From: a virus
Strand: one strand, 5' to 3'
Virus genome (UHGV): UHGV-0306641
DNA length: 64,000 bases
Both the position numbers and the translations under genes were made by a program. This document shows positions 35,065-59,600 of this stretch, in pieces (positions within the stretch are counted from its first letter, which is position 1; every line of letters starts with the position of its first letter). Below the pieces are notes generated by a model. That model saw only the letters and a list, made by a program, of their open reading frames with translations. It had not been told where the DNA came from and did no database searches.

Positions 35065-35091
35065 AAATCACAGACTCCCTATCCTCACCCC
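35065..35091 (+). promoter_or_regulatory. class I late-promoter-like element AAATCACAGACT-N3-TATCCT-aCCCC
   Basis: same 26-nt pattern at 57445 and 59575, invariant 9-bp spacing CAGACT to TATCCT; 31 nt upstream of ATG. Confidence 0.5.
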
Positions 35092-35115
35092 TGCGTAACC
35101 AACACAGGAGGCGTT

Positions 35116-35400
35116 ATGAGCGCAGCAGGAACTATTGATTCTGTTTGTTCTGGTCATGGTGGATTTCCAGCCCGGAAAACTGCAGAAGCAGAGCCATTCC
35201 TAACCATCAACGGAAAGCCGGTGCTGGTGGATGGAAACCTCTTCCCCGACCACTCAGACGGCAATTCCACTCACAGCGGCGTAGCGGTATCTACACGCCC
35301 ATGGTTCACCATAAACGGGAAACCTATCGCATGCGTTTCCGACCCCGTGTCGTGTGGCTCAGTGGTAGCAACCGGCGATGATTTCTTTCAGGTGGCATGA
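35116..35400 (+). CDS. PAAR-like spike-tip protein candidate
   Basis: repeated TINGKP(V/I) and HG/Cys-rich pattern reminiscent of PAAR-repeat proteins; AGGAGG RBS. Confidence 0.4.
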   Translation: MSAAGTIDSVCSGHGGFPARKTAEAEPFLTINGKPVLVDGNLFPDHSDGNSTHSGVAVSTRPWFTINGKPIACVSDPVSCGSVVATGDDFFQVA

Positions 35401-36179
35401 TGTTAGATAACGATAAACAAATTGATGCTTTCGGCATCCTGACGGCACAAGGCTCAGCAACCCCAGCGCCCATTATTAGTTACCGCAAAGCGACAGGCCT
35501 GTCTGACAGCCTAAAGAGTGCAGTTACCGCTCTTTACCTGGCTGACGTCACCTACCCTCCATCAATATCCGGGTACACGGATATGCTACCCAAATACATC
35601 AATACACTGGCTGCAGCAGCTGCGGAGGCCAGCCGGTTTATTGCAGCGATTCAGGGGTACACCACTCCATCGGATCTTCTGCAGATGAAAATCGGCTGGG
35701 AATGCCATGCAAAAGGCAACCGCTTAACGCCGGTACCGCCATTTGCGCTGGTGGAAGGGTTATGTGACACCGCCACCAGTGAAAGCATGAACGACGCACT
35801 GAATCATATTGAGCTAACGGCACTGTCCGATGCGATGACCATCATTAACGAAAAAATGCTTGCCGCCGCCGTTCCGCCCGGAGGCGAAGGAGAAGCAACT
35901 CCCCCGCCGGTACCGCCCAGCTTTACACCAGCTGAAATTGAAGCGCTGAAAGTTGCAACTGAAACGCTTTCCCCGCTGTTTTCGGTACTTGATGCCACCA
36001 GCACAGTAACCAGCGATTACACAGACCGGGTAAATAACTCTACGGCTGTAGCCACAAAATCACTGGCTAATGCCGTAGCCATAACACTGACGGTAGGGCT
36101 AACCGCCGATCCTGTTATGTCACAAGCCATAGCGTCAATCATGCCCCCCGGCGTTATAGACGCACTCAAAGAGGAATGA
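35397..36179 (+). CDS. hypothetical protein (260 aa)
   Basis: ATGA-coupled. Confidence 0.6.
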   Translation: MMLDNDKQIDAFGILTAQGSATPAPIISYRKATGLSDSLKSAVTALYLADVTYPPSISGYTDMLPKYINTLAAAAAEASRFIAAIQGYTTPSDLLQMKIGWECHAKGNRLTPVPPFALVEGLCDTATSESMNDALNHIELTALSDAMTIINEKMLAAAVPPGGEGEATPPPVPPSFTPAEIEALKVATETLSPLFSVLDATSTVTSDYTDRVNNSTAVATKSLANAVAITLTVGLTADPVMSQAIASIMPPGVIDALKEE

Positions 36180-36181
36180 AC

Positions 36182-36688
36182 ATGTTAAGTGCCTGGCGAA
36201 CGCCGGTTATAGCAGTCACGCTGGCCCTATTCAGTTACGTATTGATTAAGGGATATAACGCCTATTCAGATCACGTTAAGTACGTAAAAGGTCTGGAAAC
36301 CGACAACAAAACGCTGCAGGAAGACAACGACAACCTTGATGCCCAAAAACGCGGCCTGAGTGTCGCTCTCCAGCAACAGCAATCGCAAAACGAAGAGTTG
36401 CGGCTTGAACTGCAAAGGCGCGCCGACCTTCAGGCTGAAAGCGATAAGAAAGAGAGTGATCTGGAAGAACAGCTAAGCAAACAGAAACAGGAAACAGCAG
36501 ATGCAATTTCAAACCTTACTAAGCAGCTCCAGAAGGCGGGTCTTCGCAATTTGCGTCTTCCTGACAGTGTTATCAGGATGCAACGGGAACGCGCCGAGGA
36601 AGTCAACCGCAGAGCCAATAGTCGTTACAAAGGTAGTGAGCCTACCAAAGCAGGAAGCCAAAACGTACCTACCGTGCCTGATTCCTGA
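36182..36688 (+). CDS. i-spanin (Rz-like): N-terminal TM helix + periplasmic coiled coil
   Basis: TM VIAVTLALFSYVLI then heptad-rich region; contains embedded out-of-frame lipoprotein gene. Confidence 0.6.
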   Translation: MLSAWRTPVIAVTLALFSYVLIKGYNAYSDHVKYVKGLETDNKTLQEDNDNLDAQKRGLSVALQQQQSQNEELRLELQRRADLQAESDKKESDLEEQLSKQKQETADAISNLTKQLQKAGLRNLRLPDSVIRMQRERAEEVNRRANSRYKGSEPTKAGSQNVPTVPDS

Positions 36689-36803
36689 AGATACTCCCGA
36701 ATACCTGGAACTATACCCGGTGTATACGAGAGTGCTTTTTGATGCAATTGAGGAATGCAATTCGCGTAACGCAATCCGGTCCGATTACAACATGAAGCTA
36801 TGA
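36501..36803 (+). CDS. o-spanin (Rz1-like) lipoprotein, overlapped architecture
   Basis: signal peptide with lipobox LSGC; +1 frame overlapping 3' end of i-spanin and extending past it. Confidence 0.6.
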   Translation: MQFQTLLSSSRRRVFAICVFLTVLSGCNGNAPRKSTAEPIVVTKVVSLPKQEAKTYLPCLIPEDTPEYLELYPVYTRVLFDAIEECNSRNAIRSDYNMKL

Positions 36804-36826
36804 TGGTGTGATGATGGGTATTGGAA

Positions 36827-36851
36827 AGGCTGCGTTTGCGGCCTTTTTTTC
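36827..36851 (+). terminator. Rho-independent terminator
   Basis: AGGCTGC-gttt-GCGGCCT stem then T7. Confidence 0.65.
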
Positions 36852-36900
36852 TACCCGAGGTTTAACAAACATACAGCTAACCTTAGTGCTACACCATGAG

Positions 36901-36958
36901 ATCAACGCTGGCGGGTAATATCAACGCTAGCGGGTAAAAACCATCAACGCTGGCGGGT
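36901..36958. repeat. three RepA iterons (incA-like) immediately 3' of repA
   Basis: ATCAACGCT(G/A)GCGGGT x3 (reverse complement of the upstream iterons). Confidence 0.75.
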
Positions 36959-36960
36959 GC

Positions 36961-37845
36961 TCAGGTTATTTTCTTATCGCGGCTAAGAATGTTCAGGACA
37001 AAATCACCACGAACTTTTTCAATACTGTATTTGAGAAATCCGGCTTCAGATAATTGCTCAAGCGCCTTTTTAATGGTCGCATTTTGCGCCCCTTTATGGG
37101 ATGTAAGCTGTAAGCGATCACGCAATCTATCGAAACCAATACGATAAAAATTATCAGGCAATTCAACGAGGTAAAGGTATAGAGCCTGTGCTGACTCTTT
37201 TCTTGATAAGGTCTTCAGTACCTTCAGGTATAAGCGAGTCTTCCCGTCAACCTGATAGAGTGTATTCAGGTCGGGGTTTGGGCGAATAATGACCTCGTCC
37301 GTACCTTCGTCATAGTAAGAAGTCGTAACAAGGCCCATGTTGATATTGACCTTTTTACCCTCTACCGATGATGGTTTCACAAACTTAAAGCTGGTACGCT
37401 GAATACGGGTTAATGAATCGTTGAATCTCTTTCTAAGCTTTGAGTCAACGCGCTTAGTAGCAAGCCCACAACTCATTGCAAAGTCTATGAAATTCATGCG
37501 AACCGTGCCGTTTGCATCCAGGTGCTGATGTGCCAAAGTATCAACGATCCCCAGCCACACTTTGAAGTCGGTATCCATATCGAGCCTCGGACCATAAATA
37601 CTGACGCTTTCATAGCCTTCACCCGCCAGCGTTGATAGGCGGCAAAGTTCTTCAGTAGCATCAACGGTATGGCTACGTTTCATAGGATCAACACCGTCTT
37701 TCACCGTCGGAACAAACACACCCAGGCGCAGTAAAGACTTAGGCTGAATACTTTGTTTTGAGTTAGGAATCAGGTGGATAACTTCACCAGAAGTTTTGTC
37801 AACTTCCGTGATCAAAAGAGCTAAGCCATTGTTTTCTTTTTCCAT
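36961..37845 (-). CDS. repA: plasmid replication initiator RepA (P1 R-replicon type); alt TTG start 37863
   Basis: LLRLGVFVP, IYGPRLDMDTDFKVWLGIV, ESAQALYLYLVELPDN, TIKKALEQL...YSIEK align with P1 RepA. Confidence 0.85.
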   Translation of the reverse strand: MEKENNGLALLITEVDKTSGEVIHLIPNSKQSIQPKSLLRLGVFVPTVKDGVDPMKRSHTVDATEELCRLSTLAGEGYESVSIYGPRLDMDTDFKVWLGIVDTLAHQHLDANGTVRMNFIDFAMSCGLATKRVDSKLRKRFNDSLTRIQRTSFKFVKPSSVEGKKVNINMGLVTTSYYDEGTDEVIIRPNPDLNTLYQVDGKTRLYLKVLKTLSRKESAQALYLYLVELPDNFYRIGFDRLRDRLQLTSHKGAQNATIKKALEQLSEAGFLKYSIEKVRGDFVLNILSRDKKIT

Positions 37846-37884
37846 TCCATCTTCCGCAATCAATGTGGACTTTTTTAAGAGAAT

Positions 37885-37986
37885 ACCCGCTAGCGTTGAT
37901 GATTTCTACCCGCTAGCGTTGATAGTTTACCCTCTAACGCTGATGCGTAACCCGCCAGCGTTGACAATCTACCCGCTAGCGTTGAT
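37885..37986. repeat. five direct iterons (incC/origin-type) upstream of repA
   Basis: ACCCGCTAGCGTTGAT-like repeats at 37885, 37908, 37929, 37950, 37971 (21-23 bp period). Confidence 0.8.
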
Positions 37987-38128
37987 CCGATCAACCTGAG
38001 AGCCGCGATATACAAGGGCTGCGAGAGATCCTATTCTTTTATTAAACTTAGTTTGATCCTCTGTTGATCTTTTTATTTGATCTAATCAGTGAATAACTTA
38101 AGGAATTAGATAGTGACAGGGTGAATAA
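37984..38128. other. oriR-like region: six GATC sites (three as phased TTGATC(T/C) heptamers) plus two DnaA-box-like GTGAATAA sites
   Basis: GATC at 37984, 37989, 38027, 38055, 38066, 38079; AGTGAATAA 38088 and GGTGAATAA 38120 (8/9 to TGTGNATAA). Confidence 0.6.
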
Positions 38129-38160
38129 GTCCGAAATGCTTAGCGCCAAAAAAAGCCCCA

Positions 38161-38433
38161 TTAAGGGGCTAGATCTTCATCGGATAAATGCGCTTTACAC
38201 GCTGCCTTAAAGGTCAGGCAAGAACGGCTGCGTAACGCCGGTGCAAACGCCTTTAGCAATTCCTCTCTGTTAAAACCATCTGCAGCAAACAAAGATATCT
38301 TCTTCTCAATGCGTTCTTTGGCTTCAGAGAGCTTCACATCTTTGTTATTCCGTAAAAAGCGTAAGATGTAGTCGGCAATAATTCGAACCGGTTTAGTGAT
38401 ATCACACTCAGCGTGGAGGGACTGTGTATTCAC
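38161..38433 (-). CDS. hypothetical protein (90 aa)
   Basis: ORF coupled to upstream gene. Confidence 0.45.
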   Translation of the reverse strand: MNTQSLHAECDITKPVRIIADYILRFLRNNKDVKLSEAKERIEKKISLFAADGFNREELLKAFAPALRSRSCLTFKAACKAHLSDEDLAP

Positions 38434-39557
38434 TTTCTTACCTCCCAGCGACGAACGATTTCAATCCAGTTGGCACCCAGTGCGAACATCATGGTTTCAG
38501 CAACTGCATCGCCGATACTCATTACGGTGTCTCCTTCCTGCATGAACTGACGCATTTTGCTGCGAATCTCCCTTTCGTTATCTGCATCTGCGCGGCCTGT
38601 TAGACTTGGTTTAACTTCCCAAAATGAAGCGGCTAAAGGGTTAAATGTTACCTGTGGAGCAACGTCAGATACCCGGACAGCATATCCACCATCACGACGC
38701 TTAATGATCAGGTGAAGCATAAAACGCGGTACGTCAGCCCCAAGAGAAACCAGTTCATTGATTTCCAGTGCCTTAGCATGCTCAGAATTCAGATCATCCT
38801 GTTCCATTTTATCCATTGCTGAATGCAGCATGCCGTGCAACAGCCCCATATTTTCTGCGTTCTCTTTGTTGAACTGGGCATTGATTTCTTTAACGTGAAA
38901 ACCAACGTCCATTGCCAAAGCTTCGGTGTGAGCTGCTGCCACCAGCTGAAGTTGATTATGGCCTCCGCTGCTCAGGTAATCGAAACGGGCAGCGTTGCCA
39001 TAGGCCTCGTTAATTTTGTAGGCCTCACCTTGTGCTTTTTGAAGGATCTTTGTCTTCAATGTCTCTGGATGCCCTTGCCAACAATCAGCCATTTCAGGTG
39101 AGGCTAGGAACAACAAGTTCGCCTCTATGGTTTCATCCATCGCAAGTGCTTCATCATGGGCATATTCGAGTTCAATTAAACGACCTATTTCGTCGGCGTT
39201 ATCCCATGCGTCCTGCATCATTTGCGCATCCAACTTTATCGCCGCTACGTGCGCTCCTTCAATTTCTGCCGCGCGCCCTACTGCGTTCATCTGGTAGAAA
39301 AAATCCAACTGGTAGATATATGCCGCATTCTGCTCTCGCGTTAACAGAGGCGTTATTTTCTTGGCGTTCATTTCCAGCGCTTCGGCGTGGGCGTCCTCGT
39401 AGTCCTGAATCGCTGCATCAATACGGGTATGCACGTTCTTGCCATGGTGTACGCGCCAGAATGGGTATGAGCCGTTGTGACTGTTCTTAACACGAATAAA
39501 ATACTGGTTTCCACAGCGGGTATATTCTTTACCTTCCAGAGTAATGTGGTATTCCAT
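38430..39557 (-). CDS. hypothetical protein with four internal AHxEALxM(N/D) repeats (375 aa)
   Basis: AHAEALEMN, AHDEALAMD, AHTEALAMD, EHAKALEIN spaced ~50 aa. Confidence 0.6.
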   Translation of the reverse strand: MEYHITLEGKEYTRCGNQYFIRVKNSHNGSYPFWRVHHGKNVHTRIDAAIQDYEDAHAEALEMNAKKITPLLTREQNAAYIYQLDFFYQMNAVGRAAEIEGAHVAAIKLDAQMMQDAWDNADEIGRLIELEYAHDEALAMDETIEANLLFLASPEMADCWQGHPETLKTKILQKAQGEAYKINEAYGNAARFDYLSSGGHNQLQLVAAAHTEALAMDVGFHVKEINAQFNKENAENMGLLHGMLHSAMDKMEQDDLNSEHAKALEINELVSLGADVPRFMLHLIIKRRDGGYAVRVSDVAPQVTFNPLAASFWEVKPSLTGRADADNEREIRSKMRQFMQEGDTVMSIGDAVAETMMFALGANWIEIVRRWEVRK

Positions 39558-39683
39558 ATCGTCGCCAATGACACGGAGTAACTTAACCCCACGACCACGC
39601 AGATCAGAGTGATGCTTTGGAAGTCTGTTTCATAATCTGTTCCTGATTTCTCATCGTCGGCCGCGCCATGCCACCGACTCAAT

Positions 39684-39699
39684 GAGTAAATATTTACTC
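39684..39699. promoter_or_regulatory. perfect 16-bp palindrome GAGTAAATATTTACTC (operator candidate)
   Basis: identical copy 42 bp away; divergent intergenic region. Confidence 0.6.
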
Positions 39700-39725
39700 A
39701 ATTGTAATCAGTAGTCAATGGCAAA

Positions 39726-39741
39726 GAGTAAATATTTACTC
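39726..39741. promoter_or_regulatory. second copy of GAGTAAATATTTACTC palindrome
   Basis: exact repeat. Confidence 0.6.
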
Positions 39742-39793
39742 ATAGCCATTCGGCAGATATGATGTGATTAACCTAATTAGCCAGGACATGAGT

Positions 39794-40207
39794 ATGAAAG
39801 TAAATTATGTGAGGAAAGGTACCGGCACACGCACGACGATAGTTATACCCGATCATCTATGCCAGCTATGGTTAGCAACCACGCCTTCTGATGCAGTAAA
39901 ACGCGATACGCAGCGCATTAAAGAGCGCCTGGAGCAACTGGATGTACCCAGCGAAGGCGAACCATTCCAGCGCTTAGCAGAGTCTGCGCTGGTGGCTGAT
40001 ATTGAGGCATACCAGGCCCGTTTGCTTGCCTCCGGCGAGCAGATGAAGGTCCGTGTTATTGATGCCCTGTTAGCGTGGCTGCAGGGAGCTGTAGAGCCGA
40101 CCGCCAGCGTTAATGATGTGTTCAAAGCGATCGAGCAATTTAAGTCTATTCCGTGGGAAATTGAGGAATCATTCGAAAGCCTGGAGAAACAGCGCTATCC
40201 GGGTTGA
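39794..40207 (+). CDS. small DNA-binding protein candidate (possible ribbon-helix-helix), start MKVNYVRKG
   Basis: AGGACA RBS; beta-strand-like RTTIVIPDHL followed by helical region; first gene after twin palindromes. Confidence 0.45.
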   Translation: MKVNYVRKGTGTRTTIVIPDHLCQLWLATTPSDAVKRDTQRIKERLEQLDVPSEGEPFQRLAESALVADIEAYQARLLASGEQMKVRVIDALLAWLQGAVEPTASVNDVFKAIEQFKSIPWEIEESFESLEKQRYPG

Positions 40208-40293
40208 CCTTCGTCATTAAATAACGATGCATACAGTGACAATTAACGTAATGCGTTGCTATAAAAAACAAACGCTTCGTAACAGGATGAAAA

Positions 40294-40863
40294 ATGGCTA
40301 ACTGTATTCCGCTGGACCCAAAATTGCCCGCCAATTTTGACATTACTCCAAACGACAAACGATCTAAGAACCAGCTCGACACCTGGTGGGATCATCCTTA
40401 CTGCATCACCCATGACGGTGCATTCCTGGTGTACTGTCTGAATGGTGGAGCATGGGACCGCCCTACACTGTTTGGAAAAGCTGACACTTATGATGAGGCT
40501 TGCGAGCTGGCAGAAAAAAAACAGGCCGAGTGGGTAAAAACACGCGCACAACCGACGTTCTTGTACTCGACAGAACCACCGTTTGTCCTCATCCGACAGC
40601 CACAACGTCCAGACCACCAGCAGGTCATTGTGGGGGAGTTCGCCACAATGGAAGAAATGAATACGTTCTCGCTGGCGCAGGAAAATAACGAGACTGTAGA
40701 GGTTGTACCTACCCTCAACCATAATCACATGAGCCTGCCTCAACTTGCCTGGTACAGCAATGAGCTTGAGCTGTCTATCTCTAAGCTGGGTAATGAAGCA
40801 AACGCGCTACGTGAAGTACGGGAAATTGTGATTAAACGCATCCGCGAAGTGCAGAACGGATAA
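40294..40863 (+). CDS. hypothetical protein (189 aa)
   Basis: ORF with RBS. Confidence 0.6.
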   Translation: MANCIPLDPKLPANFDITPNDKRSKNQLDTWWDHPYCITHDGAFLVYCLNGGAWDRPTLFGKADTYDEACELAEKKQAEWVKTRAQPTFLYSTEPPFVLIRQPQRPDHQQVIVGEFATMEEMNTFSLAQENNETVEVVPTLNHNHMSLPQLAWYSNELELSISKLGNEANALREVREIVIKRIREVQNG

Positions 40864-40877
40864 AAGGGAATAAGAGA

Positions 40878-41219
40878 ATGGCAAAAATTCAATACCACCG
40901 TGACTGGGGTAATTACCTGGAAGTGTACGATCACGACTCAGTTGCAGAAATGAACGATCAGCTACTTCAGCACTGTGAAGAGACAATGGGGGCTAACTCT
41001 CCAGATATCGTCGTTGAATATCCGGTATATCTCCGTGATATCTATTCTGTGAAAGAACCAGGGAAATTAACTCGCATCGGCTACGTGAGCCTGGTTTTTG
41101 AAGACGCAGCCGACGGTTATGTTGTCCACCATTACACGCTCGACAAGAAAGAGCTTCCTAATGAATGGAGCGCCTTTAGTTTTTATGGCGGGGAATACGG
41201 ACTAAAACAAGCTCAGTAA
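40878..41219 (+). CDS. hypothetical protein (113 aa)
   Basis: ORF. Confidence 0.6.
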   Translation: MAKIQYHRDWGNYLEVYDHDSVAEMNDQLLQHCEETMGANSPDIVVEYPVYLRDIYSVKEPGKLTRIGYVSLVFEDAADGYVVHHYTLDKKELPNEWSAFSFYGGEYGLKQAQ

Positions 41220-41230
41220 AATTAGACGGA

Positions 41231-41521
41231 GTGATGGCATCAATGGCGGTAAGGCTATATTACAACTCAGCTGATATGCGAACGAGGGCCAGTGATGCCT
41301 GGCATACTGAATGGATCAGTAAAAGCGGTTTGAAAGCGCGACTTTGGACTGATAAGGCCATCTCAGATTTTCTCGGAAAACCTCAGAAAGCTGGTCCCAT
41401 TATGGCGTGGAAGCAAAAAGAAGTGCAGCAGGTTGAAAATACCACGGCGTTTCAAAACTGGATGGTGAAACGCCGTGCATGGTTAACCGCGCGAGGGAAA
41501 TTACCCGCAGATGATAGTTGA
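41231..41521 (+). CDS. hypothetical protein (96 aa)
   Basis: ORF with GGAG RBS. Confidence 0.55.
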   Translation: MMASMAVRLYYNSADMRTRASDAWHTEWISKSGLKARLWTDKAISDFLGKPQKAGPIMAWKQKEVQQVENTTAFQNWMVKRRAWLTARGKLPADDS

Positions 41522-41833
41522 CTGGCTACCGTCTTGTTTACGGCATTTTGGGCACCGGTTGTCGCAGAAATACGGAAAGCTGTTATCCAGCTCGTCCACC
41601 CAGCGCTTGTGATCGTAACAGTAGAAAACCTCCCACGGCAGGCCATACTCAAACATCCATTCCTGGACCTGCGCTGTCATAGGTATTGGCGGGATCGTGC
41701 TCTGGTTGGTGCTGTAGCAATTCAGGCGTTCTTCTGCCTCACGCAGCTGGCGTTCAAGGCTCGCTATTTGTTGACGCATCAGCCGCCGTTCTCTCAGCAT
41801 TTTGAAGTAAATGCTCTCGTCAGTTACTGCCAT
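41501..41833 (-). CDS. coiled-coil + C-terminal zinc-ribbon small protein, paralog A
   Basis: PWEVFYCYDHKRWVDEL...CPKCRK; start MAVTDE. Confidence 0.55.
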   Translation of the reverse strand: MAVTDESIYFKMLRERRLMRQQIASLERQLREAEERLNCYSTNQSTIPPIPMTAQVQEWMFEYGLPWEVFYCYDHKRWVDELDNSFPYFCDNRCPKCRKQDGSQSTIICG

Positions 41834-42116
41834 CTTCCCCCCTGCAGCCCGGACACGTCCCGTAGGTATCGTGCGGGAAGCTACTACACAACTCATCAAG
41901 CCAGCGTTCGTGTTCATAACACCAAAAAACCTCCCACGGAACCCTGTGCTTTTTCATCAGCGCCATAAGGTTTATTGGCATATCTGCCGGTTGGCGTTCT
42001 TCAGGAAGCAGTTGCCCGGAGAGTTGCCTTTCCATGCGGTCCAGCTGGCGTAAAAGTTCTGCATTATCTCTCTCCAGTTGCTCACATTTGGCCTGGAGTT
42101 CAGTTTTAGTTGGCAT
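41820..42116 (-). CDS. coiled-coil + C-terminal zinc-ribbon small protein, paralog B
   Basis: PWEVFWCYEHERWLDEL...CPGCRG; tandem duplicate of neighbour. Confidence 0.55.
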   Translation of the reverse strand: MPTKTELQAKCEQLERDNAELLRQLDRMERQLSGQLLPEERQPADMPINLMALMKKHRVPWEVFWCYEHERWLDELCSSFPHDTYGTCPGCRGEDGSN

Positions 42117-42123
42117 AATTCCC

Positions 42124-42510: not shown

Positions 42511-42524
42511 GGTGTCAATTCCTG

Positions 42525-48378: not shown

Positions 48379-49075
48379 GGTTAGCCTCCCTGGTAGCGAG
48401 GAAGGTGGTCATCGACTTTTCGATCATCGGCGCAGCACGGTACCGGCTGATACCCCACACAATAGCGAATAGAATCCATTGGAAATGGCTGGTATACGTC
48501 TTATAGGAAATGTCAGCGCACAATTCCCATATATCTACACAGACAGGCCAGTCAGCTTCATAAACGGCGTTATATGCCAATACATCGTTATTGAAATCCT
48601 CACGGCACAGCTCGCGAACGATTTCACGAATACGGGATTTGTCACTGTCTGGTTCGTCGTCTTCGTCGCTCCAATCAACGTCTGGCTCGTTTTCGTCGTC
48701 TTCAAAATATGTGCTTAGCAATTCCTTCAAGGATGAGCAAAATTCGTCATGATCATATGACTTAGCAAGCAGCTCACGAGCGGAACAACCGGCACCAGCC
48801 TCAAGTTTTTCAGACCAATAATGCGTGTTAATCTCCAGCGTATTGCGCGCAAAAAAATCAAACATGTCGTAGGTACGGGTAAACGTCCAGGTCCCCATAT
48901 CGCCGCAGATAGTCAGATAGCCAGGCCATGTAATGAGATCGAAGTAATAGCAGTTGGTCCCCGGTTGTTGGAAACGGATGTGACGATAAACGCCGTCCTC
49001 TTTCAGAATGGTCATTTGATGGTTACAAACATCCCGAACAAATTGGCTTAAAGTGTCGCGCTGTTTCAGTTTCAT
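48371..49075 (-). CDS. hypothetical acidic protein (234 aa)
   Basis: ORF. Confidence 0.55.
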   Translation of the reverse strand: MKLKQRDTLSQFVRDVCNHQMTILKEDGVYRHIRFQQPGTNCYYFDLITWPGYLTICGDMGTWTFTRTYDMFDFFARNTLEINTHYWSEKLEAGAGCSARELLAKSYDHDEFCSSLKELLSTYFEDDENEPDVDWSDEDDEPDSDKSRIREIVRELCREDFNNDVLAYNAVYEADWPVCVDIWELCADISYKTYTSHFQWILFAIVWGISRYRAAPMIEKSMTTFLATREANHG

Positions 49076-51887: not shown

Positions 51888-51933
51888 CCTGCTTTTTCCT
51901 TATGCAAATTTGTGGCTCTGAAGCGCGTCGTTG

Positions 51934-52125
51934 TTACGATCTCTTCTGTTTTCTGCGTCCACTTTTTCGGTAACTGCTACTGCCATACACCAGCGCTAAA
52001 AGGCTCGACGCCATGGCTATTTTTCCCGCTGTTTCTGTTCCCCACTCCGCCCCCCACGCCAGGGCTATCACCAACCCCCAGCAGAGAAACGCCAGGCCAA
52101 CAAACAGCGCCCGGACCAGCCTCAT
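51934..52125 (-). CDS. small membrane protein (63 aa)
   Basis: two hydrophobic segments, basic C-terminus. Confidence 0.35.
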   Translation of the reverse strand: MRLVRALFVGLAFLCWGLVIALAWGAEWGTETAGKIAMASSLLALVYGSSSYRKSGRRKQKRS

Positions 52126-52562: not shown

Positions 52563-52614
52563 GTAAATCTAACAAAAATAAATTAAATCTATGGTATTTT
52601 TTGAAGTGGGTTAA

Positions 52615-52634
52615 CAAAGTACAAACCGCATAAT
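52615..52634 (+). promoter_or_regulatory. class II late-promoter candidate CAAAGTACAAACCGCATAAT
   Basis: 19/19 identical to element at 22904; CATAAT -10-like; 55 nt upstream of structural gene. Confidence 0.5.
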
Positions 52635-52688
52635 CTCTACGCGTCAAAAGTAACTCTCGCAGCCGCGCCCTAAGATAAGGGCTAAATT

Positions 52689-54440
52689 GTGAGCAAAGAT
52701 ATTTCGCCTGCCCGCGCGCGAATGGATGAAATCAACCAACGCGCCGCGCGTGTCGCAGCATTCACCGTTGATATTCAAAAAAAGAATGGCGTCACCATTA
52801 CCGATCCTAACGAGCTGGCTCAGGCTTCACTGGATGCGGCATTACGTGATCCGATGTTTGAAGGTGTTGACCCACGCTTTGTGAAGCGTGTCGCGAGCGC
52901 GTGGACGTCGGCGATGATCGAGCACCAGCAACGTACCGGTGATTTGCCATCACCAGACCTGCTGGCAAACGCGCAATATTGCTGTGAAAACCTGATGTTG
53001 GAAGCCGCATCTGACAAACATGAAGGTGTTGGTCGCGCGATGTTTGAATCAGCTGCAGCTGATATGCGTACCTCTGATGGTGTTTTACGTCTGGCCCAGT
53101 TCGTAGCGCTTATCCTGCCGGTATCTTTGGGTGCAGCAACGTCTGACGCATGTACTTTCGTACCGTGCGATCGTGATAAAGCCAATATTTACGAACTGCT
53201 TAACGTCGCAGGGACGGAGTTCGGCTCATTCAAGGTCGGTGACGAGCTGCACATGCAAGCCGCCGGTATGTATTCGCAACTCAAGCGTTACTACATCTTC
53301 CCCGCAGATCTTCAGCCAGATGGTACGAAGAAAACCTTCAACTTTGGAATTAAAGCAGTTGAAGGGAAAGATATGGCTATCCGTGCCGGTCGCACGAAGC
53401 TGATCATTAACCGCCGTCAATCTAAAGCTGATGACGGCGACGGCAACCTGTATTTCAACGATAAAGATGCTAACGGGACGGCATTCTCCGCCACCTGTAA
53501 AGTTGCTTATGACAAAGGTACGGTCGCTGTCACCTTCACTGAAGCACCTGCAGCGGGTACTGAATTAGCGATTCAGCTGGAAATCAACATCGAAAAAGCG
53601 CCAGAGCTTATTCCTGTGATTAACCAGTCCATGCGTGAATGGCAGGTTAGCCCTTCTCAGTATGTTGTTGCATCCGAGCACACTGTCATGTCTGCATCTG
53701 ATGCCAGCCGTGAATTTGGCCTCAACATGCAGTCGATCCAGTTTACTGCAATGCGTAACTGGCTCTCCCATGAGCAGGACATGATGCGTCTGCGCCTAAT
53801 GGCGTTTTTCTGTATCGAAAAATACGACTTTGACGTAGCGCTGCCGGAAGCTCAGCAATATGAATCCTGGGTTGGCCTGCTTCGCCATCGTGTGAATGAA
53901 ATGAGCACGGCGATGGTCAATAAAACCCGTAAATCCGGCATTCGTGGCGGTTTTGCTGGTGGTGAGGCTGCGAACTTTATTAAGTCTCTCCCGCCGCAGT
54001 ATTTCTCCCAGGACCCGAACTACGTTGAAAGCCCTCACGTCCAGTACATCGGTACGCTGTTTGGCTACATCCGTATTTTTGAAGTCCCGACCGCTGTTTG
54101 TGACCAGTTCGTAAAAGATGGCTATGACTTCAATTCAAATGAAGTTATTTTCTACGGTCGCGGTAACAGCATTGGTGAAGCAGGTCTTATCACCGGTGAT
54201 GCCGTGCCTGCCATTCCTTATATCCACGAAACCAATCCTTCTTTGGTGAACCGCACCACTATGTGGGGATCTGCGCTTAACGAGATCCATCCGCGTAAAG
54301 GTGAAGCCTATTTCTGCAAGCTGCAGCTGACCAACGCCAAAGTTGGCGCATTCAACATGCTGAACGGAAAGAAAATCGAAGCAGGTCAACCGACTGAGCC
54401 TGAAGTGCCGGAAGTGGCTGACGCCAAATCCACCAAATAA
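52689..54440 (+). CDS. virion structural protein (583 aa; GTG start)
   Basis: first gene of tail module under conserved promoter element. Confidence 0.6.
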   Translation: MSKDISPARARMDEINQRAARVAAFTVDIQKKNGVTITDPNELAQASLDAALRDPMFEGVDPRFVKRVASAWTSAMIEHQQRTGDLPSPDLLANAQYCCENLMLEAASDKHEGVGRAMFESAAADMRTSDGVLRLAQFVALILPVSLGAATSDACTFVPCDRDKANIYELLNVAGTEFGSFKVGDELHMQAAGMYSQLKRYYIFPADLQPDGTKKTFNFGIKAVEGKDMAIRAGRTKLIINRRQSKADDGDGNLYFNDKDANGTAFSATCKVAYDKGTVAVTFTEAPAAGTELAIQLEINIEKAPELIPVINQSMREWQVSPSQYVVASEHTVMSASDASREFGLNMQSIQFTAMRNWLSHEQDMMRLRLMAFFCIEKYDFDVALPEAQQYESWVGLLRHRVNEMSTAMVNKTRKSGIRGGFAGGEAANFIKSLPPQYFSQDPNYVESPHVQYIGTLFGYIRIFEVPTAVCDQFVKDGYDFNSNEVIFYGRGNSIGEAGLITGDAVPAIPYIHETNPSLVNRTTMWGSALNEIHPRKGEAYFCKLQLTNAKVGAFNMLNGKKIEAGQPTEPEVPEVADAKSTK

Positions 54441-54446
54441 TTGCAA

Positions 54447-54471
54447 AGCGGCATCTGAACGGGTGCCGCTA
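54447..54471 (+). other. intergenic hairpin without U-tract (possible attenuator/processing site)
   Basis: AGCGGCA...TGCCGCT 7-bp stem. Confidence 0.3.
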
Positions 54472-54485
54472 ACAGGATTCTGAAC

Positions 54486-56072
54486 ATGAAACAAATTCCT
54501 TTTGCAGTTGGTCAGGCATCCGGTATCGCGATCATGCCGGTTAATGCTGATGCGACCAACACCAATACGTCAGGCGGTGCTTCTGTTTTCGCTGGGTTAG
54601 TAATTTCCCGCCGTGGCAAGCCAGGCGTAGTATTACGCGTTACTGCAAATAACTATCAGTCGGTGCTGGGCGCGGCTATCCATCCGCGTCAGGGGGCTAT
54701 GTTTGAGCCATTGCGTCACGTCGAACGTGCGACAAAAGGCGGTGATGGTTATGTCGTTCGCGTGTGCGCGCCAGACATGAAAATCCCGATGCTGGCCCTT
54801 ACGCTAAATGCGGAAACAAAAGCGTTCACCGCGACAGCATCCACCATGAACGTTGGGGCGCTCCCTGCCCTGCCTGATGGCGCTCACGCGCTGATTTACA
54901 TTGATGATGGTGATGCCTCTACCTCTCGTGCAATTAACTTACATGAGGATGAGACTTCCGAAGGCTTATTCATTCTGGAGCTGCAGGAAACTGATGCTGC
55001 AGGTACCGTCACTATTCTGGAATCGCACCAGGTATCCTTTGATCCTGATGGTATTACCGACATGGGGACCCCGGCATTCATTGCTACGGCTCTGGAAAAT
55101 GGTTCCACGCGATTACGTGCGCTGGTGGCGGATGATGCACATGAAGCTATCTCTCAGCTTCAGGGAGAATTGACGCCGGTTAAAGCAATACCGTTTGTTG
55201 GCGGTAGTGATGGTGATTTTTCGACGATTAAGGCTGCTGATTATCAAAAAGCGCTGACAGTCCTGAAAAAATCGATGTTTAGCTTTACTGCAGTCCTCTC
55301 ACTCGGTTGTTACGACCCCACAGTGATTGCGGATCTGGATAAATTTTCCCAAGATATTCGGGTTGATATGTTCTATGACCTGAAGGGCGCACAAACAGCC
55401 GCGTTAGCTATCACTGAAGCGAAGTCACACGGCCTCGGTGGATCTCACCAATCATGTCGCTATTACTTCCCGTATTCCTGCCGCGATGTATTCACTGGCG
55501 CAAATGTTGTATTCGGGATCTCCTGTGAGGCGTTTATTGCTAAGGCTAAAGGCGTTGCGCTGGTCCCGGATGTTGGTGGCTGGCATTACGCACCTGCAGG
55601 GACTTCGCGGGGCATCATTAGTCGTCAGAACATCAAGCCTATCCCTAATCTGGATGAGATTGATCTCGAAGAGTTCGTTAAAGCCCGAATCAACACGGTT
55701 GCGATGAATGAAGCCGGTGATCTTTATATTGACGATTACCTGACGACTATCACCAAAAACAACTACCTGCGTCTGCAGCCTATTAGCTCGTTGATGAACG
55801 CAATTGCGCGCGGTTTTTACCAGGTTGCTGAGGCTGCAAAACATGAGCCTGATGGCGTTACGGCAACGGTATTGACGTCGGGTATGACAGATTTGCTTGA
55901 GCGATTTGTTGCCGCTGAAGCACTGGTAAAACCTCGCGATACAAGCCAGGGCGAGTCCCCTTTCACCCTGTCACTGACCCAAAAAGACATTGACCTGTGG
56001 GAACTGGAATGGGCTGTTTGCCCGACGGGTTCGTCACGTCGAATTGTCGGTAAACCGATGCTCTTGCGCTAA
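54486..56072 (+). CDS. tail sheath protein candidate (528 aa)
   Basis: size, position before tube-like gene and tape measure; C-terminal GDLYIDDY segment resembles sheath-family conserved region. Confidence 0.5.
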   Translation: MKQIPFAVGQASGIAIMPVNADATNTNTSGGASVFAGLVISRRGKPGVVLRVTANNYQSVLGAAIHPRQGAMFEPLRHVERATKGGDGYVVRVCAPDMKIPMLALTLNAETKAFTATASTMNVGALPALPDGAHALIYIDDGDASTSRAINLHEDETSEGLFILELQETDAAGTVTILESHQVSFDPDGITDMGTPAFIATALENGSTRLRALVADDAHEAISQLQGELTPVKAIPFVGGSDGDFSTIKAADYQKALTVLKKSMFSFTAVLSLGCYDPTVIADLDKFSQDIRVDMFYDLKGAQTAALAITEAKSHGLGGSHQSCRYYFPYSCRDVFTGANVVFGISCEAFIAKAKGVALVPDVGGWHYAPAGTSRGIISRQNIKPIPNLDEIDLEEFVKARINTVAMNEAGDLYIDDYLTTITKNNYLRLQPISSLMNAIARGFYQVAEAAKHEPDGVTATVLTSGMTDLLERFVAAEALVKPRDTSQGESPFTLSLTQKDIDLWELEWAVCPTGSSRRIVGKPMLLR

Positions 56073-56082
56073 GGAAAAAGAG

Positions 56083-56793
56083 ATGCTGAATAAACGTAAT
56101 ATGAACCATAGCCTACTGCTCCAGGCCGGTTTTTCCGTGGATACCACTGCTGAAGAACAAGCCATGCTTGAAAACAATACTAATAAGAACAAGCCTGTCA
56201 AAAAAGATGGCGATAAAGAAATGGCTATGATGGAAGCGGTAGAGCGCCGCTACAACGAGGACCGTCGTAGTGTTGCGGCGTCTATGCTTGTGGACTGGGC
56301 CAACGACGGCGAACCAACCTGGCTTGATTTTAGTGCGTTGGCTATTTCCCTGGCTGACCTGCCTGATCTGGAAGACGACAGCGCCGACTATACCGACGAA
56401 CAGGTTGATGCTTACAACGATGCGCTGTCTGACCTGGCCTACGCAGCTATTGCACTCGGTGCAGACCAGGAAGACGTCACTAGTATGATCGACGATGAAG
56501 ATGATGACGCTGCAGCTGCTGTCTACGATGCTATTAATGACATTGATGACAGCGATGAAGCTATTTCTCAATACACTATCGCCGGTGATGACGATGACGC
56601 TATGTTTGAAGCGCCGAAAATTAAGGTTGTTCGCGACGGAAAAGTAAAACTGATCCGTAAACGCATTCGTAAACTGCGCCGAACCTCCAAACAAAAAGCG
56701 GCCTTGAAAAAAGCACGTCGTAAAGCGCAAACCTCCACGGCAAAACTACACCGCCGTAAATCCATGAAGCTCCGCCAAAAGCGCGGAATGTAA
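56083..56793 (+). CDS. acidic protein with strongly basic C-terminal tail (236 aa)
   Basis: AAGGA RBS; KRIRKLRRTSKQKAALKKARRKAQ tail. Confidence 0.6.
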   Translation: MLNKRNMNHSLLLQAGFSVDTTAEEQAMLENNTNKNKPVKKDGDKEMAMMEAVERRYNEDRRSVAASMLVDWANDGEPTWLDFSALAISLADLPDLEDDSADYTDEQVDAYNDALSDLAYAAIALGADQEDVTSMIDDEDDDAAAAVYDAINDIDDSDEAISQYTIAGDDDDAMFEAPKIKVVRDGKVKLIRKRIRKLRRTSKQKAALKKARRKAQTSTAKLHRRKSMKLRQKRGM

Positions 56794-56802
56794 TGAGCCT
56801 GA

Positions 56803-56830
56803 GCCACCAGCAACTTGCTGGTGGCTTTTT
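56803..56830 (+). terminator. Rho-independent terminator
   Basis: GCCACCAGC-aactt-GCTGGTGGC then T5. Confidence 0.75.
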
Positions 56831-56844
56831 AGGGAGCCTTCACA

Positions 56845-57435
56845 ATGATTTGTGGCGCGATAATGCCAGATGGCGTAAGCCCCTTCCTGAAAGTCTTTAT
56901 TACGTCAGAAACGCATATGGTTGTGGGCTATATAGGCCAGGGTAGCAGTGCTGAACTGCAATCCATGTGGGAATCACCGTTCGGTAACGACAGCTTAGGG
57001 GGTATGGCGGGGGCTGTCAGTTCTGCAGCCGGTAAAGTGGCTTCAACCGCTCAGGCTATGTCAGACCAGACAACCAAATCGACCTTCAATAGCCTGCTGA
57101 TATGGGAAGGCCAGACACCACCGACGTTTAACCTTGTCATTGATCTGATGGCTACAATGGATGCGAAGGTGGAGGTAAATGATGCTATTTCCACCTTGCT
57201 GCAGATGGAATCGCCGGAGCTGGCAGCAATGGCAGCTACAGGACGCCGACCCACACCAGTTATTCTGGATATCGGTCGCAGACTGAAACTGATGGATGTT
57301 GTGATTCAGAACGTCAGCTATCAGCTCGATGTTCCGAAAACAGCCCAAGGCTACTATACGCATAATACCGTTACACTGCAGTGCTCTGGTATGGCTGTAC
57401 AAAACCAGTCTGACATTCCCTACATGTTTATCTGA
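56845..57435 (+). CDS. hypothetical structural protein (196 aa)
   Basis: GGGAG RBS. Confidence 0.55.
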   Translation: MICGAIMPDGVSPFLKVFITSETHMVVGYIGQGSSAELQSMWESPFGNDSLGGMAGAVSSAAGKVASTAQAMSDQTTKSTFNSLLIWEGQTPPTFNLVIDLMATMDAKVEVNDAISTLLQMESPELAAMAATGRRPTPVILDIGRRLKLMDVVIQNVSYQLDVPKTAQGYYTHNTVTLQCSGMAVQNQSDIPYMFI

Positions 57436-57444
57436 TCCTTTCGT

Positions 57445-57471
57445 AAATCACAGACTACTTATCCTACCCCC
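57445..57471 (+). promoter_or_regulatory. class I late-promoter-like element AAATCACAGACTACTTATCCTACCCCC
   Basis: conserved with 35065 and 59575. Confidence 0.5.
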
Positions 57472-57514
57472 AGTGCAATTTTGGCACTGCCACTGTTTCA
57501 ACTGAGGGGTATTT

Positions 57515-58006
57515 ATGTCTGGATTTTCCAACACCAAAGCCGATATGGGCTTTCTCAAAAAACGCCTTAATCAGAGCCTTGCCGCCGGTGAAAAACTGGT
57601 TGGCTCTGAGTTTTGGATGCGCATCAAGGGTTATGACAATTTGTCTATTCTTGTTCGTACAGCCCAAATTCCTGAAATGACCCGTGAAGACGTGGAAGAT
57701 TTCGCGCCGAGTGGCATGAAAATTAACCAACATGGGCCTATTCGTAACTCTGGCGAAATTCAGGTGACGTGCGCAGAAACTATCAAAGGCGATGTGTTTA
57801 AAGCCGTGCGTCAAATGGTTTATGGCAAAGAGTATGTCGATATCGAGCTTCAGGCAGCTGCAGAATCTAACAGTGGTTCAGATGGCGGTATCACTCGCAA
57901 ATTGCTGCATTGTAAGGTCTACAGTGACGCCATTGATTTCGGTTCAGAAGACGTGACTACTGTTGTGCGCCCTACCCTACGTATCGTTTACAACTGGGCT
58001 GAATAA
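57515..58006 (+). CDS. tail tube protein candidate (163 aa)
   Basis: size/position after sheath candidate; GAGGGG RBS. Confidence 0.4.
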   Translation: MSGFSNTKADMGFLKKRLNQSLAAGEKLVGSEFWMRIKGYDNLSILVRTAQIPEMTREDVEDFAPSGMKINQHGPIRNSGEIQVTCAETIKGDVFKAVRQMVYGKEYVDIELQAAAESNSGSDGGITRKLLHCKVYSDAIDFGSEDVTTVVRPTLRIVYNWAE

Positions 58007-58008
58007 TT

Positions 58009-58560
58009 ATGACGCCAGTCGATATGCTGGAAGGCGTTAAAAAGCGCTTTCAGCCGCTTCTCGCGGATGATGAGACATTGCTTAAAACCCTGTTACGTCA
58101 AGCGTTGACGACTTATCAGGATAAGGCTGGCGTAATAGGCCGAGTTCAGATAAGCAAGCAGGATGGCGTCAGCCTGAAGCTACCAGAAGATTATCTGGCA
58201 TTAATCCATGTCACAGATAGTCGCGGTGGCCTGGTGTATGCCGACCCCTACCCTGACTCCATCAGACTGGATTTGGATGGCTGCGAACGTTATCCACTGA
58301 CAATGGCGTATTTGCTCAACCTGAGAGATCGTGATTTCGAAAAATGGGTTATACCGGATGACATTATCGGGAGCCTGGAAGACTATCTGGAGGCGCTTAT
58401 TGCGATTAAAAACACGGAGAGACTCCGCATTGTAGCCATCGCCGGGAAACTGGATACCAGTGGATACCCTGATGAAATTACTCTGCAGCAGCGCAAGCAA
58501 GAGCTGGAGCTGCAAATGTCGGCGAACAGAGCGATTATCCCTGGCGCAACCATACTGTAA
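58009..58560 (+). CDS. hypothetical tail-module protein (183 aa)
   Basis: ORF. Confidence 0.6.
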   Translation: MTPVDMLEGVKKRFQPLLADDETLLKTLLRQALTTYQDKAGVIGRVQISKQDGVSLKLPEDYLALIHVTDSRGGLVYADPYPDSIRLDLDGCERYPLTMAYLLNLRDRDFEKWVIPDDIIGSLEDYLEALIAIKNTERLRIVAIAGKLDTSGYPDEITLQQRKQELELQMSANRAIIPGATIL

Positions 58561-58614
58561 CGCGTGGATCAGTGCTGCATAGTTTGCAGCACTCCACCAG
58601 CTCACGAGGTGATT

Positions 58615-59316
58615 ATGGGTTTTTTTGATGGGCTGGCGAATAACATCACTGGTGGTGCCAGTGCTAAATCTATCGGCAGTAACCTCCTTTCCAACATTCT
58701 TGACCGGGCCACATCGATCACCAGCGGAAAATCAGTTTCGTTCGGTGGCATGCCTGCGGAGCTATCGAACGCTAAATCAATTCTGCAGGCTGCGATGCGT
58801 ATTCGTTATGCACAGGGCTGGCAATGGACGGTTGAAGCTGATGGGATGCCCGGAATTGATATGTACGCAAAAGACGTCACATTTGGTTTTGGCAACATTG
58901 AAACCGAGTCAAAAATTATCGGGGGTATTGAATTTAATAAACCGACTCATCGGACTGCGGGAAACCTTACGATGACCGTTCGTGATAACGAGAACGGTGA
59001 TCTGTATAAATGGTTCGATCAGCGTCGTGCTAAGGTCATCAACAATGACGGTACCATCAACCTCCCCCCTTCCTATCTTATGAATATTCGACTGTACAGG
59101 GTATCTCAGGACGGTCAACGAACACTGGCTGAAGAAGCTGCAATGATCCCTACCACGCTGGGGGAAGTCACCTGGTCGCGTGATCAAGTGACAGAGTTCA
59201 TGTCATACCCTCTGTCATTTGTTAAAGGTTCGTCTATTAACAAAGGGTTTAGTGGGCTTGCAGGCAGCGCCATATCTGGGCTGACCAGTAAAATCGGGAG
59301 TGGAATATCCTTCTAA
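58615..59316 (+). CDS. hypothetical tail-module protein (234 aa)
   Basis: start MGFFDG with GAGGTG RBS. Confidence 0.55.
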   Translation: MGFFDGLANNITGGASAKSIGSNLLSNILDRATSITSGKSVSFGGMPAELSNAKSILQAAMRIRYAQGWQWTVEADGMPGIDMYAKDVTFGFGNIETESKIIGGIEFNKPTHRTAGNLTMTVRDNENGDLYKWFDQRRAKVINNDGTINLPPSYLMNIRLYRVSQDGQRTLAEEAAMIPTTLGEVTWSRDQVTEFMSYPLSFVKGSSINKGFSGLAGSAISGLTSKIGSGISF

Positions 59317-59329
59317 ACGTAAATGCAGT

Positions 59330-59530
59330 GTATGTACTTGATGTTATGTCATTGGATATGCGATGTAATATCAATGTACATACAAATATGTAATTACGAC
59401 GTACATGCAATGTGTGTTCGTTGTGCCGCATAAGTGCGACACTGTATTTACAAATAAGTATTTACTGTGTATGTGCGTATGGTTAACGATGTGAATATGT
59501 TGTATTTACTTAATCGTATTATCATTGTAT
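59330..59530. repeat. third AT-rich repeat cluster of the TGTATTTAC / ATGTACATACAA family, inside the tail module
   Basis: CTGTATTTACAAATAAGTATTTACTG, TTGTATTTACTTAATCG, CATTGTATTTACGTTG, CAATGTACATACAAATATGTAATTACG. Confidence 0.55.
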
Positions 59531-59574
59531 TTACGTTGTGTTGTCTTTTATTGGCGAAGAGAATGCGCCATAAC

Positions 59575-59600
59575 GAAAACACAGACTGCATATCCTACTC
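59575..59600 (+). promoter_or_regulatory. class I late-promoter-like element AAACACAGACTGCATATCCTACTC
   Basis: conserved with 35065 and 57445; 32 nt upstream of ATG. Confidence 0.5.

Follow-up and report, generated by a model that had tools for sequence, protein, structure and literature searches.

How are the late operons of a P1-like phage-plasmid switched on when the DNA in front of them offers a -10 hexamer without a -35 partner? This question is raised by the virus genome UHGV-0306641, of which a stretch of 64,000 nucleotides (hereafter the window) was analysed. An earlier reading of these letters (the original prediction) had singled out three copies of a short motif at structural or lysis operons, and had proposed a family of class I activator-type promoters, specific to this element, with the architecture expected for phage late promoters that depend on a phage activator, as those of P1 depend on Lpa. 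The window is a D6/P1-like phage-plasmid of Citrobacter, and our comparisons make it highly probable that the motif is the late promoter of this D6-lineage, P1-like phage-plasmid, probably activated by the element's own Lpa-type protein.

Putative late promoters of the window

When up to three mismatches to the pattern AAATCACAGACT-N3-TATCCT (AAATCACAGACTNNNTATCCT) were allowed, exactly three matches were found in the window, all on the plus strand; 0.04 matches are expected by chance, and none of 100 shuffled sequences reached three. Two of the copies begin exactly where they had been placed, at 35065 and 57445, while the third begins at 59576 rather than at 59575. The invariant spacing noticed at the outset holds in all of them (CAGACT, three nucleotides, TATCCT), the 30, 49 and 30 nt that separate the hexamers from the start codons agree with the predicted 31-50 nt from an operon start, and the guesses made for the downstream genes are in line with a mapping of P1 proteins (PAAR/Rz1-like, bplB-pmgC-tub and pmgB-sit operons). 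A family of three was nevertheless an undercount. The search for further copies, which had been recommended, returned four more sites of the same architecture in the window, as well as sites in relatives, in front of late operons. The window thereby holds seven sites, and every late operon that was recognized, seven in all (genes for packaging, head and tail, and lysis-associated genes), has one of them in front; all sites are on the plus strand, 30-63 nt upstream of the first start codon, that of pacA, mat, gene 7, upfC, gene 23, bplB or pmgB (table 1).

All sites consist of a 12-bp asymmetric box, exactly 3 bp, and a -10 hexamer TAnnnT, the latter being present at seven of the seven sites in the window. 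If the hexamer is taken to occupy -12..-7, the box lies at approximately -27..-16, with its centre at -21.5; it is not self-complementary and is not an inverted repeat. The absence of a -35 hexamer was borne out, as the best match to TTGACA at a spacer of 16-18 nt reaches only 2-3 of six positions at all seven sites, and a scan for consensus sigma-70 promoters found none on the plus strand before these operons. Neither is there a TG at -15/-14 in the seven sites, where the bases preceding the hexamer are ccc, act, gca, cca, gca, gca and gcc. The term 'class I', by contrast, is a misnomer, because the box sits between the -35 and -10 positions, within the spacer, and not upstream of the -35 position. 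The proposed late-promoter architecture itself (a box and a -10, without a -35) stands: the window encodes an Lpa-family protein, none of the seven late operons lacks the motif in front of it, and the motif is conserved in D6, Citrobacter and Pantoea elements.

Among the four additional sites, the one at 26090 has an orthologue in D6 (67413, minus strand), where the gene also shares the ATGGGCCGTTTTG start. The start proposed by the open reading frame (ORF) caller for gene 7, at 26080, would place this promoter inside the gene; the true start of the gene 7 homologue is probably ATG 26149 (ATGGGCCGTTTTG, as in D6). The sites before mat and gene 23 carry a variant box, AAAGTACAAACC, within an exact 20-bp duplicate, ACAAAGTACAAACCGCATAA (at 22903 and 52614). 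The same variant is found at the Pantoea orthologues of both (mat, 91680, minus strand; capsid gene, 78612, minus strand, with an identical box), where D6 has AAATCACAAACT before mat and AAATCACAAAGT before gp23. We considered ACAAAGTACAAACCGCATAA as a second, separate promoter family; realignment gave the same succession of box, N3 and hexamer, and the two were merged. An intermediate box, AAAGTACAGACT, at the R-gene promoter of a complete Citrobacter relative joins both flavours. Finally, the degenerate box of the probable pacA promoter has counterparts, likewise located after TGATCA repeats, in the elements L012 and Pantoea (AAATTACAGACTccaTACCAT) and in the element L014 (AAAAAACAGACCgcaTACCAT).

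Conservation across lineages

A weight matrix was trained solely on the nine sites first found in D6, and then run on the window. Its top four matches there are 35065, 57445, 59576 and 26090, at 17.3-23.8 bits, each of them 30-49 nt ahead of a late gene in the same orientation. As for the background, single shuffled sequences reach approximately 20-21 bits, and the mean is approximately 0.4 matches of at least 15 bits per shuffle. A degenerate pattern yielded six matches in the window (shuffle mean 0.69), 11 in the Citrobacter relative (0.89), 12 in D6 (1.28) and eight in Pantoea (0.68), versus three in P1, used as a control (1.35); by this count, P1 is not enriched for the D6-type box. A scan for CACAGACTNNNTANNNT with two mismatches was uninformative (17 matches versus 12.5 expected).

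Contrary to the earlier claim, the box is thus not unique to this element, and is instead the promoter box of the D6 lineage, common to D6 and other D6-like phage-plasmids. In D6, the core AAATCACAnACT-N3-(T/C)AnnnT is co-oriented with, and located just upstream of, the orf16 peptidoglycan hydrolase gene, the portal gene, ddrB, lydA and the R/S tail fibre genes, and likewise precedes pmgB, gp23, gene 7, mat, darB and upfC. Further sites come from the complete relative NZ_CP114569, in which they precede the holin gene, ddrB, the peptidoglycan hydrolase gene, the portal gene and R, whereas the Pantoea agglomerans phage-plasmid carries the identical AAAGTACAAACC box upstream of its capsid and mat genes. 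Orthologous operons with sites in several lineages are those of gp23, mat, gene 7, upfC, pmgB and pacA and, outside the window, those of lydA, ddrB, R/S and prt. These operons correspond to the ones served by the promoters LP23, LPmat, LPsit, LPpac, LPdar, LPs and LPpro annotated in P1.

Altogether, 31 sites from five lineages give the consensus AAAtnACAnACT-N3-TAnnnT. In the corresponding matrix, A1 and A8 of the box and the A (position 2) and final T (position 6) of the -10 are invariant, A2, A3, A6, C7 and C11 are nearly so, and the positions upstream of the box show no conservation. Among relatives with approximately 95% identity, changes in the element are confined to the spacer (act to aat, gca to gcc) and to an inner base of the -10 (TATCCT to TATTCT), whereas the region upstream of the pmgB promoter has strongly diverged among the same relatives. 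At the single sites, the 35065 element keeps its box and TA...T unaltered in close relatives and has orthologues in D6 (56918, minus strand) and Pantoea (80806, minus strand); the 57445 element varies only by act to aat and TATCCT to TATTCT; and the D6 orthologue of 59576 (45511, minus strand) reads AAATCACACACTcccTATCCT, nearly identical to the copies of the window. The exact 21-mer was found in three IMG/VR contigs, two of which are close relatives of the window and one unrelated. The bplB promoter lies within an 80-bp intergenic segment (57436-57514) that is absent from D6 (48798-48807) and Pantoea (73810-73821), in which the gap between pmgG and bplB is 8-10 bp. Since both lack that segment, the bplB promoter is a gain specific to the Citrobacter lineage.

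Two other motif-like matches were recorded. One, on the minus strand at 31582, is antisense within the coding sequence of dmt (score approx. 12) and is probably due to chance; the other, on the plus strand at 75618 of NZ_CP114569, lies inside the sit homologue, approximately 190 bp before pmgA (score 16.3), and might act as an internal promoter. We also asked whether the late leaders share a conserved 5'-terminal hairpin, and rejected the idea: over 40 leaders from five genomes the mean z was -0.2 (p = 0.15), and the energies were not below those of random 40-mers.

A candidate activator and its putative repressor

The original prediction had advised looking for an Lpa-like activator on the replicon, and such a gene was found in the window. 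Its 143-aa product, 38% identical to D6 orf4 and 23% to P1 Lpa, is a candidate reader of the box. A first AlphaFold2 model, built with eight close homologues (mean predicted local distance difference test score, pLDDT, 55), was too poor and was replaced; a profile search retrieved 78 Lpa family members, and an alignment of 50 sequences was used for the final model (mean pLDDT 78.5, with 82-91 over residues 10-85). This model comprises three helices, a beta-hairpin and then a long C-terminal helix, and the PDB entries that Foldseek ranked highest against it are all winged-helix DNA-binding domains (Fur, PerR, MarR-type, PadR-type and forkhead), aligned over approximately 70 residues at 2-3.5 angstroms. 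In the 50 proteins, the putative recognition helix (the third helix) falls into two sharp classes, P1-type RDVYLRLK(A/S)I and D6-type (V/I)(T/S/N)N(I/V)xRxF, which parallel the two classes of box. This parallel is consistent with a reading of the box by Lpa.

Where lpa and pacA are contiguous, late-type boxes are also seen upstream of lpa itself: AAAGAACAACCCtcgTACCAT in the Klebsiella relative L013 (9949-9969, plus strand) and TTTTAACATTCTcatTATCAT in D6 (approx. 4580-4610, minus strand). This suggests that lpa may be positively autoregulated in lineages of that organization.

The window also encodes a C1-type prophage repressor homologue, whose syntenic orthologues carry PF27008 (Phage_P7_repressor_C1). 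The word ATTCTAAGG, with an extended form of roughly ATTCTAAGGnTTTAAT, occurs in six exact copies versus 0.32 expected (8749-8757 and 8937-8945 on the minus strand, 16595-16603, 19801-19809, 21066-21074 and 29313-29321). All six are intergenic and adjoin early-type genes (lpa, the ref-like region and hrdC-dmt), and the Pantoea plasmid, L012 and L014 have all kept CCTTAGAAT upstream of lpa. ATTCTAAGG is accordingly a candidate for the C1-type operator of the D6 lineage, and we infer that C1 would repress lpa in the prophage, because P1 has an Olpa operator at lpa.

Proposed mechanism and alternative explanations

By analogy with P1, the following scheme can be drawn. In the prophage, the C1-type repressor would hold lpa off, probably via the ATTCTAAGG operator; induction would free the lpa promoter of C1, and the Lpa-like protein would be made. 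Its winged-helix domain would then bind the 12-bp box at -27..-16 and would recruit the host sigma-70 RNA polymerase via polymerase-bound SspA, as described for P1, in replacement of the -35 contact at promoters left with a weak -10. At least seven late operons of the window (packaging, head, tail and lysis-associated) would be switched on together and, judging from relatives, approximately five more on the rest of the replicon (holin/lysis, ddrB, peptidoglycan hydrolase, portal and tail fibres). We infer the release of C1, the binding of Lpa to the box and the recruitment through SspA from P1 biology combined with the sequence; the promoter family, the Lpa-family gene and the conservation of both are what the present comparisons establish.

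Several points weigh against this interpretation. Start sites, late timing and dependence on Lpa are all predicted from sequence, and the degenerate pattern was composed after the sites had been seen. The scores of 22905 and 52616 (12-13) and of 11146 (9.1) fall within the range of shuffled sequences, so that the former two rely on their exact duplication and on orthology, and the latter on orthology. The P1 binding mode is not simply transferable, because the box is not an inverted repeat and stands 2 bp nearer to the -10. On the protein side, the Foldseek E-values for winged-helix domains are 0.02 or weaker, none reaching 0.001, for which reason we grade a winged-helix fold of the N-terminal domain of Lpa as likely and not as proven. 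Lastly, the covariation of helix and box is weak, because it reflects a single evolutionary split (P1 versus the D6 clade).

Could the box instead be an operator, through which a repressor (C1, or a secondary immunity or partition protein) silences weak constitutive promoters reduced to a -10? It does overlap the core promoter, a common position for repressors, and two of the three copies adjoin TGTAAATAC-like repeat arrays near a ParA-type gene. However, early-type genes and lpa are marked by a different word, ATTCTAAGG, which fits the role of C1 operator better, and the fixed 3-bp phase and orientation with respect to the -10 at 31 sites are typical of a promoter element. Moreover, TATCCT-type hexamers with neither a -35 nor an extended -10 would make very poor constitutive promoters, and in P1 this position is taken by a counterpart that serves an activator (PMC3152322, PMC10695390), all of which makes a repressor operator highly improbable. 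That the three copies are a recently duplicated cassette or a chance repeat devoid of any regulatory role is hardly credible at all. The identical TATCCT and a few flanking bases shared by all three (cgtAAA..., ...TATCCTaCCCC), together with the lineage-specific bplB copy, would suit such an origin, but the similarity extends no more than a few bases beyond the 21-mer, chance would give only 0.04 matches, and four other genomes contain more than 25 further sites with the same box and spacing, all of which precede late genes and share their orientation.

A further alternative keeps the promoters but assigns their reading to another phage factor, for which a protein resembling a sigma factor and the pmgS homologue, which has an alpha-CTD-like domain, would be candidates; Lpa would then do something else. 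The pmgS homologue (7431-8741, plus strand) lies just upstream of lpa, and its C-terminal residues 347-403 match RNA_pol_A_CTD (PF03118) with 27.4 bits (cut-off 23.8), a match that holds in several lineages and after which RefSeq names the orthologues; the box, too, is wholly different from that of P1. On the other hand, the D6 homologue is annotated as a putative scaffolding protein, P1 PmgS has no alpha-CTD match, and the PHROG annotation of the family is head morphogenesis. No sigma-factor homologue was seen among the P1-homologous genes, although no systematic scan for one was made, whereas the Lpa family is conserved along with the promoter architecture in every lineage examined. We consequently judge this alternative improbable, and retain activation by the element's own Lpa as the preferred explanation.

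Gene order and neighbouring features

The promoter regions had no megablast match in the phage collection, and the element was identified through a protein search and a search of a plasmid collection. The 583-aa ORF at 52689-54440 is 61% identical to the phage D6 major capsid protein and 43.5% to P1 gp23, and the window is approximately 95% identical to plasmids of Citrobacter freundii and C. portucalensis, of approximately 85-95 kb and typed as non-mobilizable. Mapping of P1 proteins by tblastn gave the order darB, pmgM, pmgS, the Lpa-like ORF, pacA, pacB, cre; mat, 26, 25; 7, 24, 6, 5; hrdC, dmt; upfC (PAAR), upfB, mlp; repA; 23, 22, 21, pmgG; bplB, pmgC, tub; pmgB, sit, which is a P1/D6-type arrangement. 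In the upfC operon, the PAAR_motif scores 35 bits (cut-off 27), and the mlp ORF matches LysC (Rz1-like) with 18.8 bits, short of the 27 bits that Pfam requires. Scans for Rfam families and for tRNAs gave no match in the window.

Table 1. Putative promoters, the operons discussed, and regulatory genes of the window (positions are those of the 64,000-nt stretch).
Feature	Position	Strand	Details
Late promoter, upfC-upfB-ppfA-mlp	35065..35085	+	box AAATCACAGACT, 0 mismatches; spacer ccc; -10 TATCCT; 30 nt to ATG 35116
Late promoter, bplB-pmgC-tub	57445..57465	+	box AAATCACAGACT, 0 mismatches; spacer act; -10 TATCCT; 49 nt to ATG 57515
Late promoter, pmgB-sit	59576..59596	+	box AAAACACAGACT, 1 mismatch; spacer gca; -10 TATCCT; 30 nt to ATG 59627
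Late promoter, genes 7-24-6-5 (tail/baseplate)	26090..26110	+	box AATTCACAATCT; spacer cca; -10 TACAGT; D6-trained matrix 18.5 and 17.6
Late promoter, mat-26-25	22905..22925	+	variant box AAAGTACAAACC; spacer gca; -10 TAAAAT; matrix 13.1
Late promoter, 23 (major capsid)-22 (sheath)-21-pmgG	52616..52636	+	variant box AAAGTACAAACC; spacer gca; -10 TAATCT; matrix 12.2
Probable late promoter, pacA-pacB (terminase)	11146..11166	+	degenerate box AAAAACCAGACC; spacer gcc; -10 TATCCT; 31 nt to ATG 11198; matrix 9.1
Operon upfC (PAAR, PF05488), upfB, ppfA-position ORF, mlp/Rz1-like ORF	35116..36803	+	P1-protein tblastn; served by 35065 promoter
Operon bplB, pmgC, tub (tail tube)	57515..59316	+	P1-protein tblastn, 45-55% identity; served by 57445 promoter
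Operon pmgB and sit-like tape-measure/transglycosylase gene, running past the window end	59627..64000	+	P1-protein tblastn, relative-plasmid annotation; served by 59576 promoter
Lpa-family late-promoter activator gene, 143 aa	8954..9385	+	Pfam PF25716 (BPP1_LPA), 86.8 bits (cut-off 35); phrog_1704, E = 3e-25
C1-type prophage repressor homologue	13969..15003	-	29% identity to D6 C1, E = 7e-37
ATTCTAAGG word between lpa promoter region and lpa ATG	8937..8945	-	8 nt 5' of lpa ATG

Between lpa and pacA lies a ParM/StbA-type partition cassette on the minus strand (9856-11031, PF06406, with a partner ORF at 9365-9856), whereas lpa and pacA overlap in D6 and in the Klebsiella relative L013; with this insertion, pacA therefore needs a late promoter of its own in the window lineage. 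Directly upstream of the pacA promoter, five TGATCA hexamers (containing the Dam site GATC) are packed into 72 bp (11071-11142). The same arrangement is found in the Pantoea plasmid, L012 and L014, and is reminiscent of the P1 pac site with its TGATCA repeats; the cluster could be part of a pac site or could take part in a Dam-sensitive control of the pac promoter.

Arrays of TGTA(A/C)(A/T)TAC-like words in both orientations (30 matches with at most one mismatch versus 12.3 expected) were observed at 34120-34178, 34880-35045 and 59375-59535, the last within the 310-bp gap between tub and pmgB. The former two adjoin, on the minus strand, the gene of a small ParA-type ATPase (34187-34849) with its partner (33818-34096), and two of the three arrays are directly upstream of the 35065 and 59576 promoters. 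These arrays may be centromere or operator arrays.

Implications

The P1 late-transcription scheme, in which C1 represses lpa and Lpa activates the late promoters, is here extended to phage-plasmids of the D6 lineage. Specialists would expect late promoters in D6-like phages with an Lpa gene; such elements are common in Citrobacter, Salmonella, Klebsiella, Pantoea and Escherichia coli, and some carry resistance genes. As current records have no promoter annotation for them, the consensus AAAtnACAnACT-N3-TAnnnT can be used to annotate late operons and also to correct gene starts, for instance that of gene 7 at 26149.

A broader proposal, which we advance tentatively and with slightly less confidence than its contrary, is that the Lpa family comprises at least two natural, non-cross-reacting specificity classes, the D6 class reading an asymmetric 12-bp box 3 bp from the -10. 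If so, the 9-bp inverted repeat thought to define P1 Lpa sites would not be a general requirement, and Lpa may bind as a monomer, or asymmetrically, beside RNA polymerase. A second box specificity associated with a distinct recognition helix would offer a natural comparison for the way in which Lpa and SspA substitute for -35 recognition, a mechanism for which our searches turned up no structure, and possibly an orthogonal activator-promoter pair for engineering. Within the lineage, AAATCACAGACT with TATCCT is found at the tail and PAAR/spanin-like operons, and AAAGTACAAACC at gp23 and mat, the latter box being conserved between the Citrobacter and Pantoea elements; the two flavours could set a different strength or timing for tail and lysis-associated versus head genes in the Citrobacter/Pantoea lineage.

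Comparison with known systems

A close known counterpart is P1, whose 11 late promoters carry a 9-bp inverted repeat to which Lpa binds (PMC10695390). The conserved target of Lpa has its centre at -22, and host SspA serves as co-activator (PMC3152322); Lpa binds DNA in a sequence-specific manner and is thought to touch the SspA bound to RNA polymerase (PMC1891329). In the GenBank record NC_005856, the 11 annotated late promoters are each composed of a 9-bp '-22 region', a 4-bp spacer and a -10 hexamer, and we derived from them the consensus aAC-AAGTGACTT-N4-TAnnnT. Both systems share a TAnnnT hexamer (even TATCCT at LPlyz) without a -35, a box near -22, a location before the same late operons, and a PF25716 activator encoded on the replicon in the pacA/c1 region; in front of the activator gene, P1 has Olpa and the window a candidate repressor operator. 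However, the P1 box, AAGTnACTT followed by N4, is an inverted repeat of 9 bp at -25..-17, whereas that of the window is the asymmetric 12-mer AAAtnACAnACT followed by N3, at -27..-16. A GACT core is common to both, 3 bp from the hexamer in the window and 5 bp in P1. Neither genome is enriched for the other's box; in the window, no intergenic P1-type box was detected, and the four matches at two mismatches are not before a late operon. The two Lpa proteins, with their 23% identity, also have different putative recognition helices. While the divergent pair LP26/LPpmgL of P1 shares one palindromic box, the divergent darB/orf16 promoters of D6 use two separate, back-to-back boxes (19191, minus strand, and 19215, plus strand), in keeping with an asymmetric site.

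D6 (MF356679) has the same box and spacing at orthologous late operons and an Lpa of the same recognition-helix class (38% identical). The window lineage differs from it by two box flavours (AAATCACAGACT and AAAGTACAAACC), by the extra bplB promoter, and by the ParM/StbA cassette between lpa and pacA, which gives pacA its own promoter. The D6 GenBank record has no promoters annotated, and text searches of the searchable literature found nothing relevant on the D6 box, although it may be described elsewhere.

Farther afield, T4 middle promoters combine a MotA box, centred at -30, with a -10, in a mechanism known as 'sigma appropriation' that involves AsiA. There too, a phage activator supplies the upstream contact where the sigma-70 -10 is kept and the -35 is missing. 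The sequence of the MotA box is nonetheless different and the proteins are unrelated; the co-factor is AsiA in T4 and the host-encoded SspA in P1, both bound to sigma-70 region 4 (for the participation of SspA in P1, see PMC7515715). With CAP-type class I and class II activation, the system shares the recruitment of sigma-70 RNA polymerase by an activator, but class I sites are upstream of the -35, at -61.5 or farther, and those of class II, at -41.5, overlap it, whereas the box of the window lies between the -35 and the -10. The design is a known one, that of the P1 late promoter, and not a new kind of system; what differs is the asymmetric box, its spacing and a correspondingly different class of Lpa.

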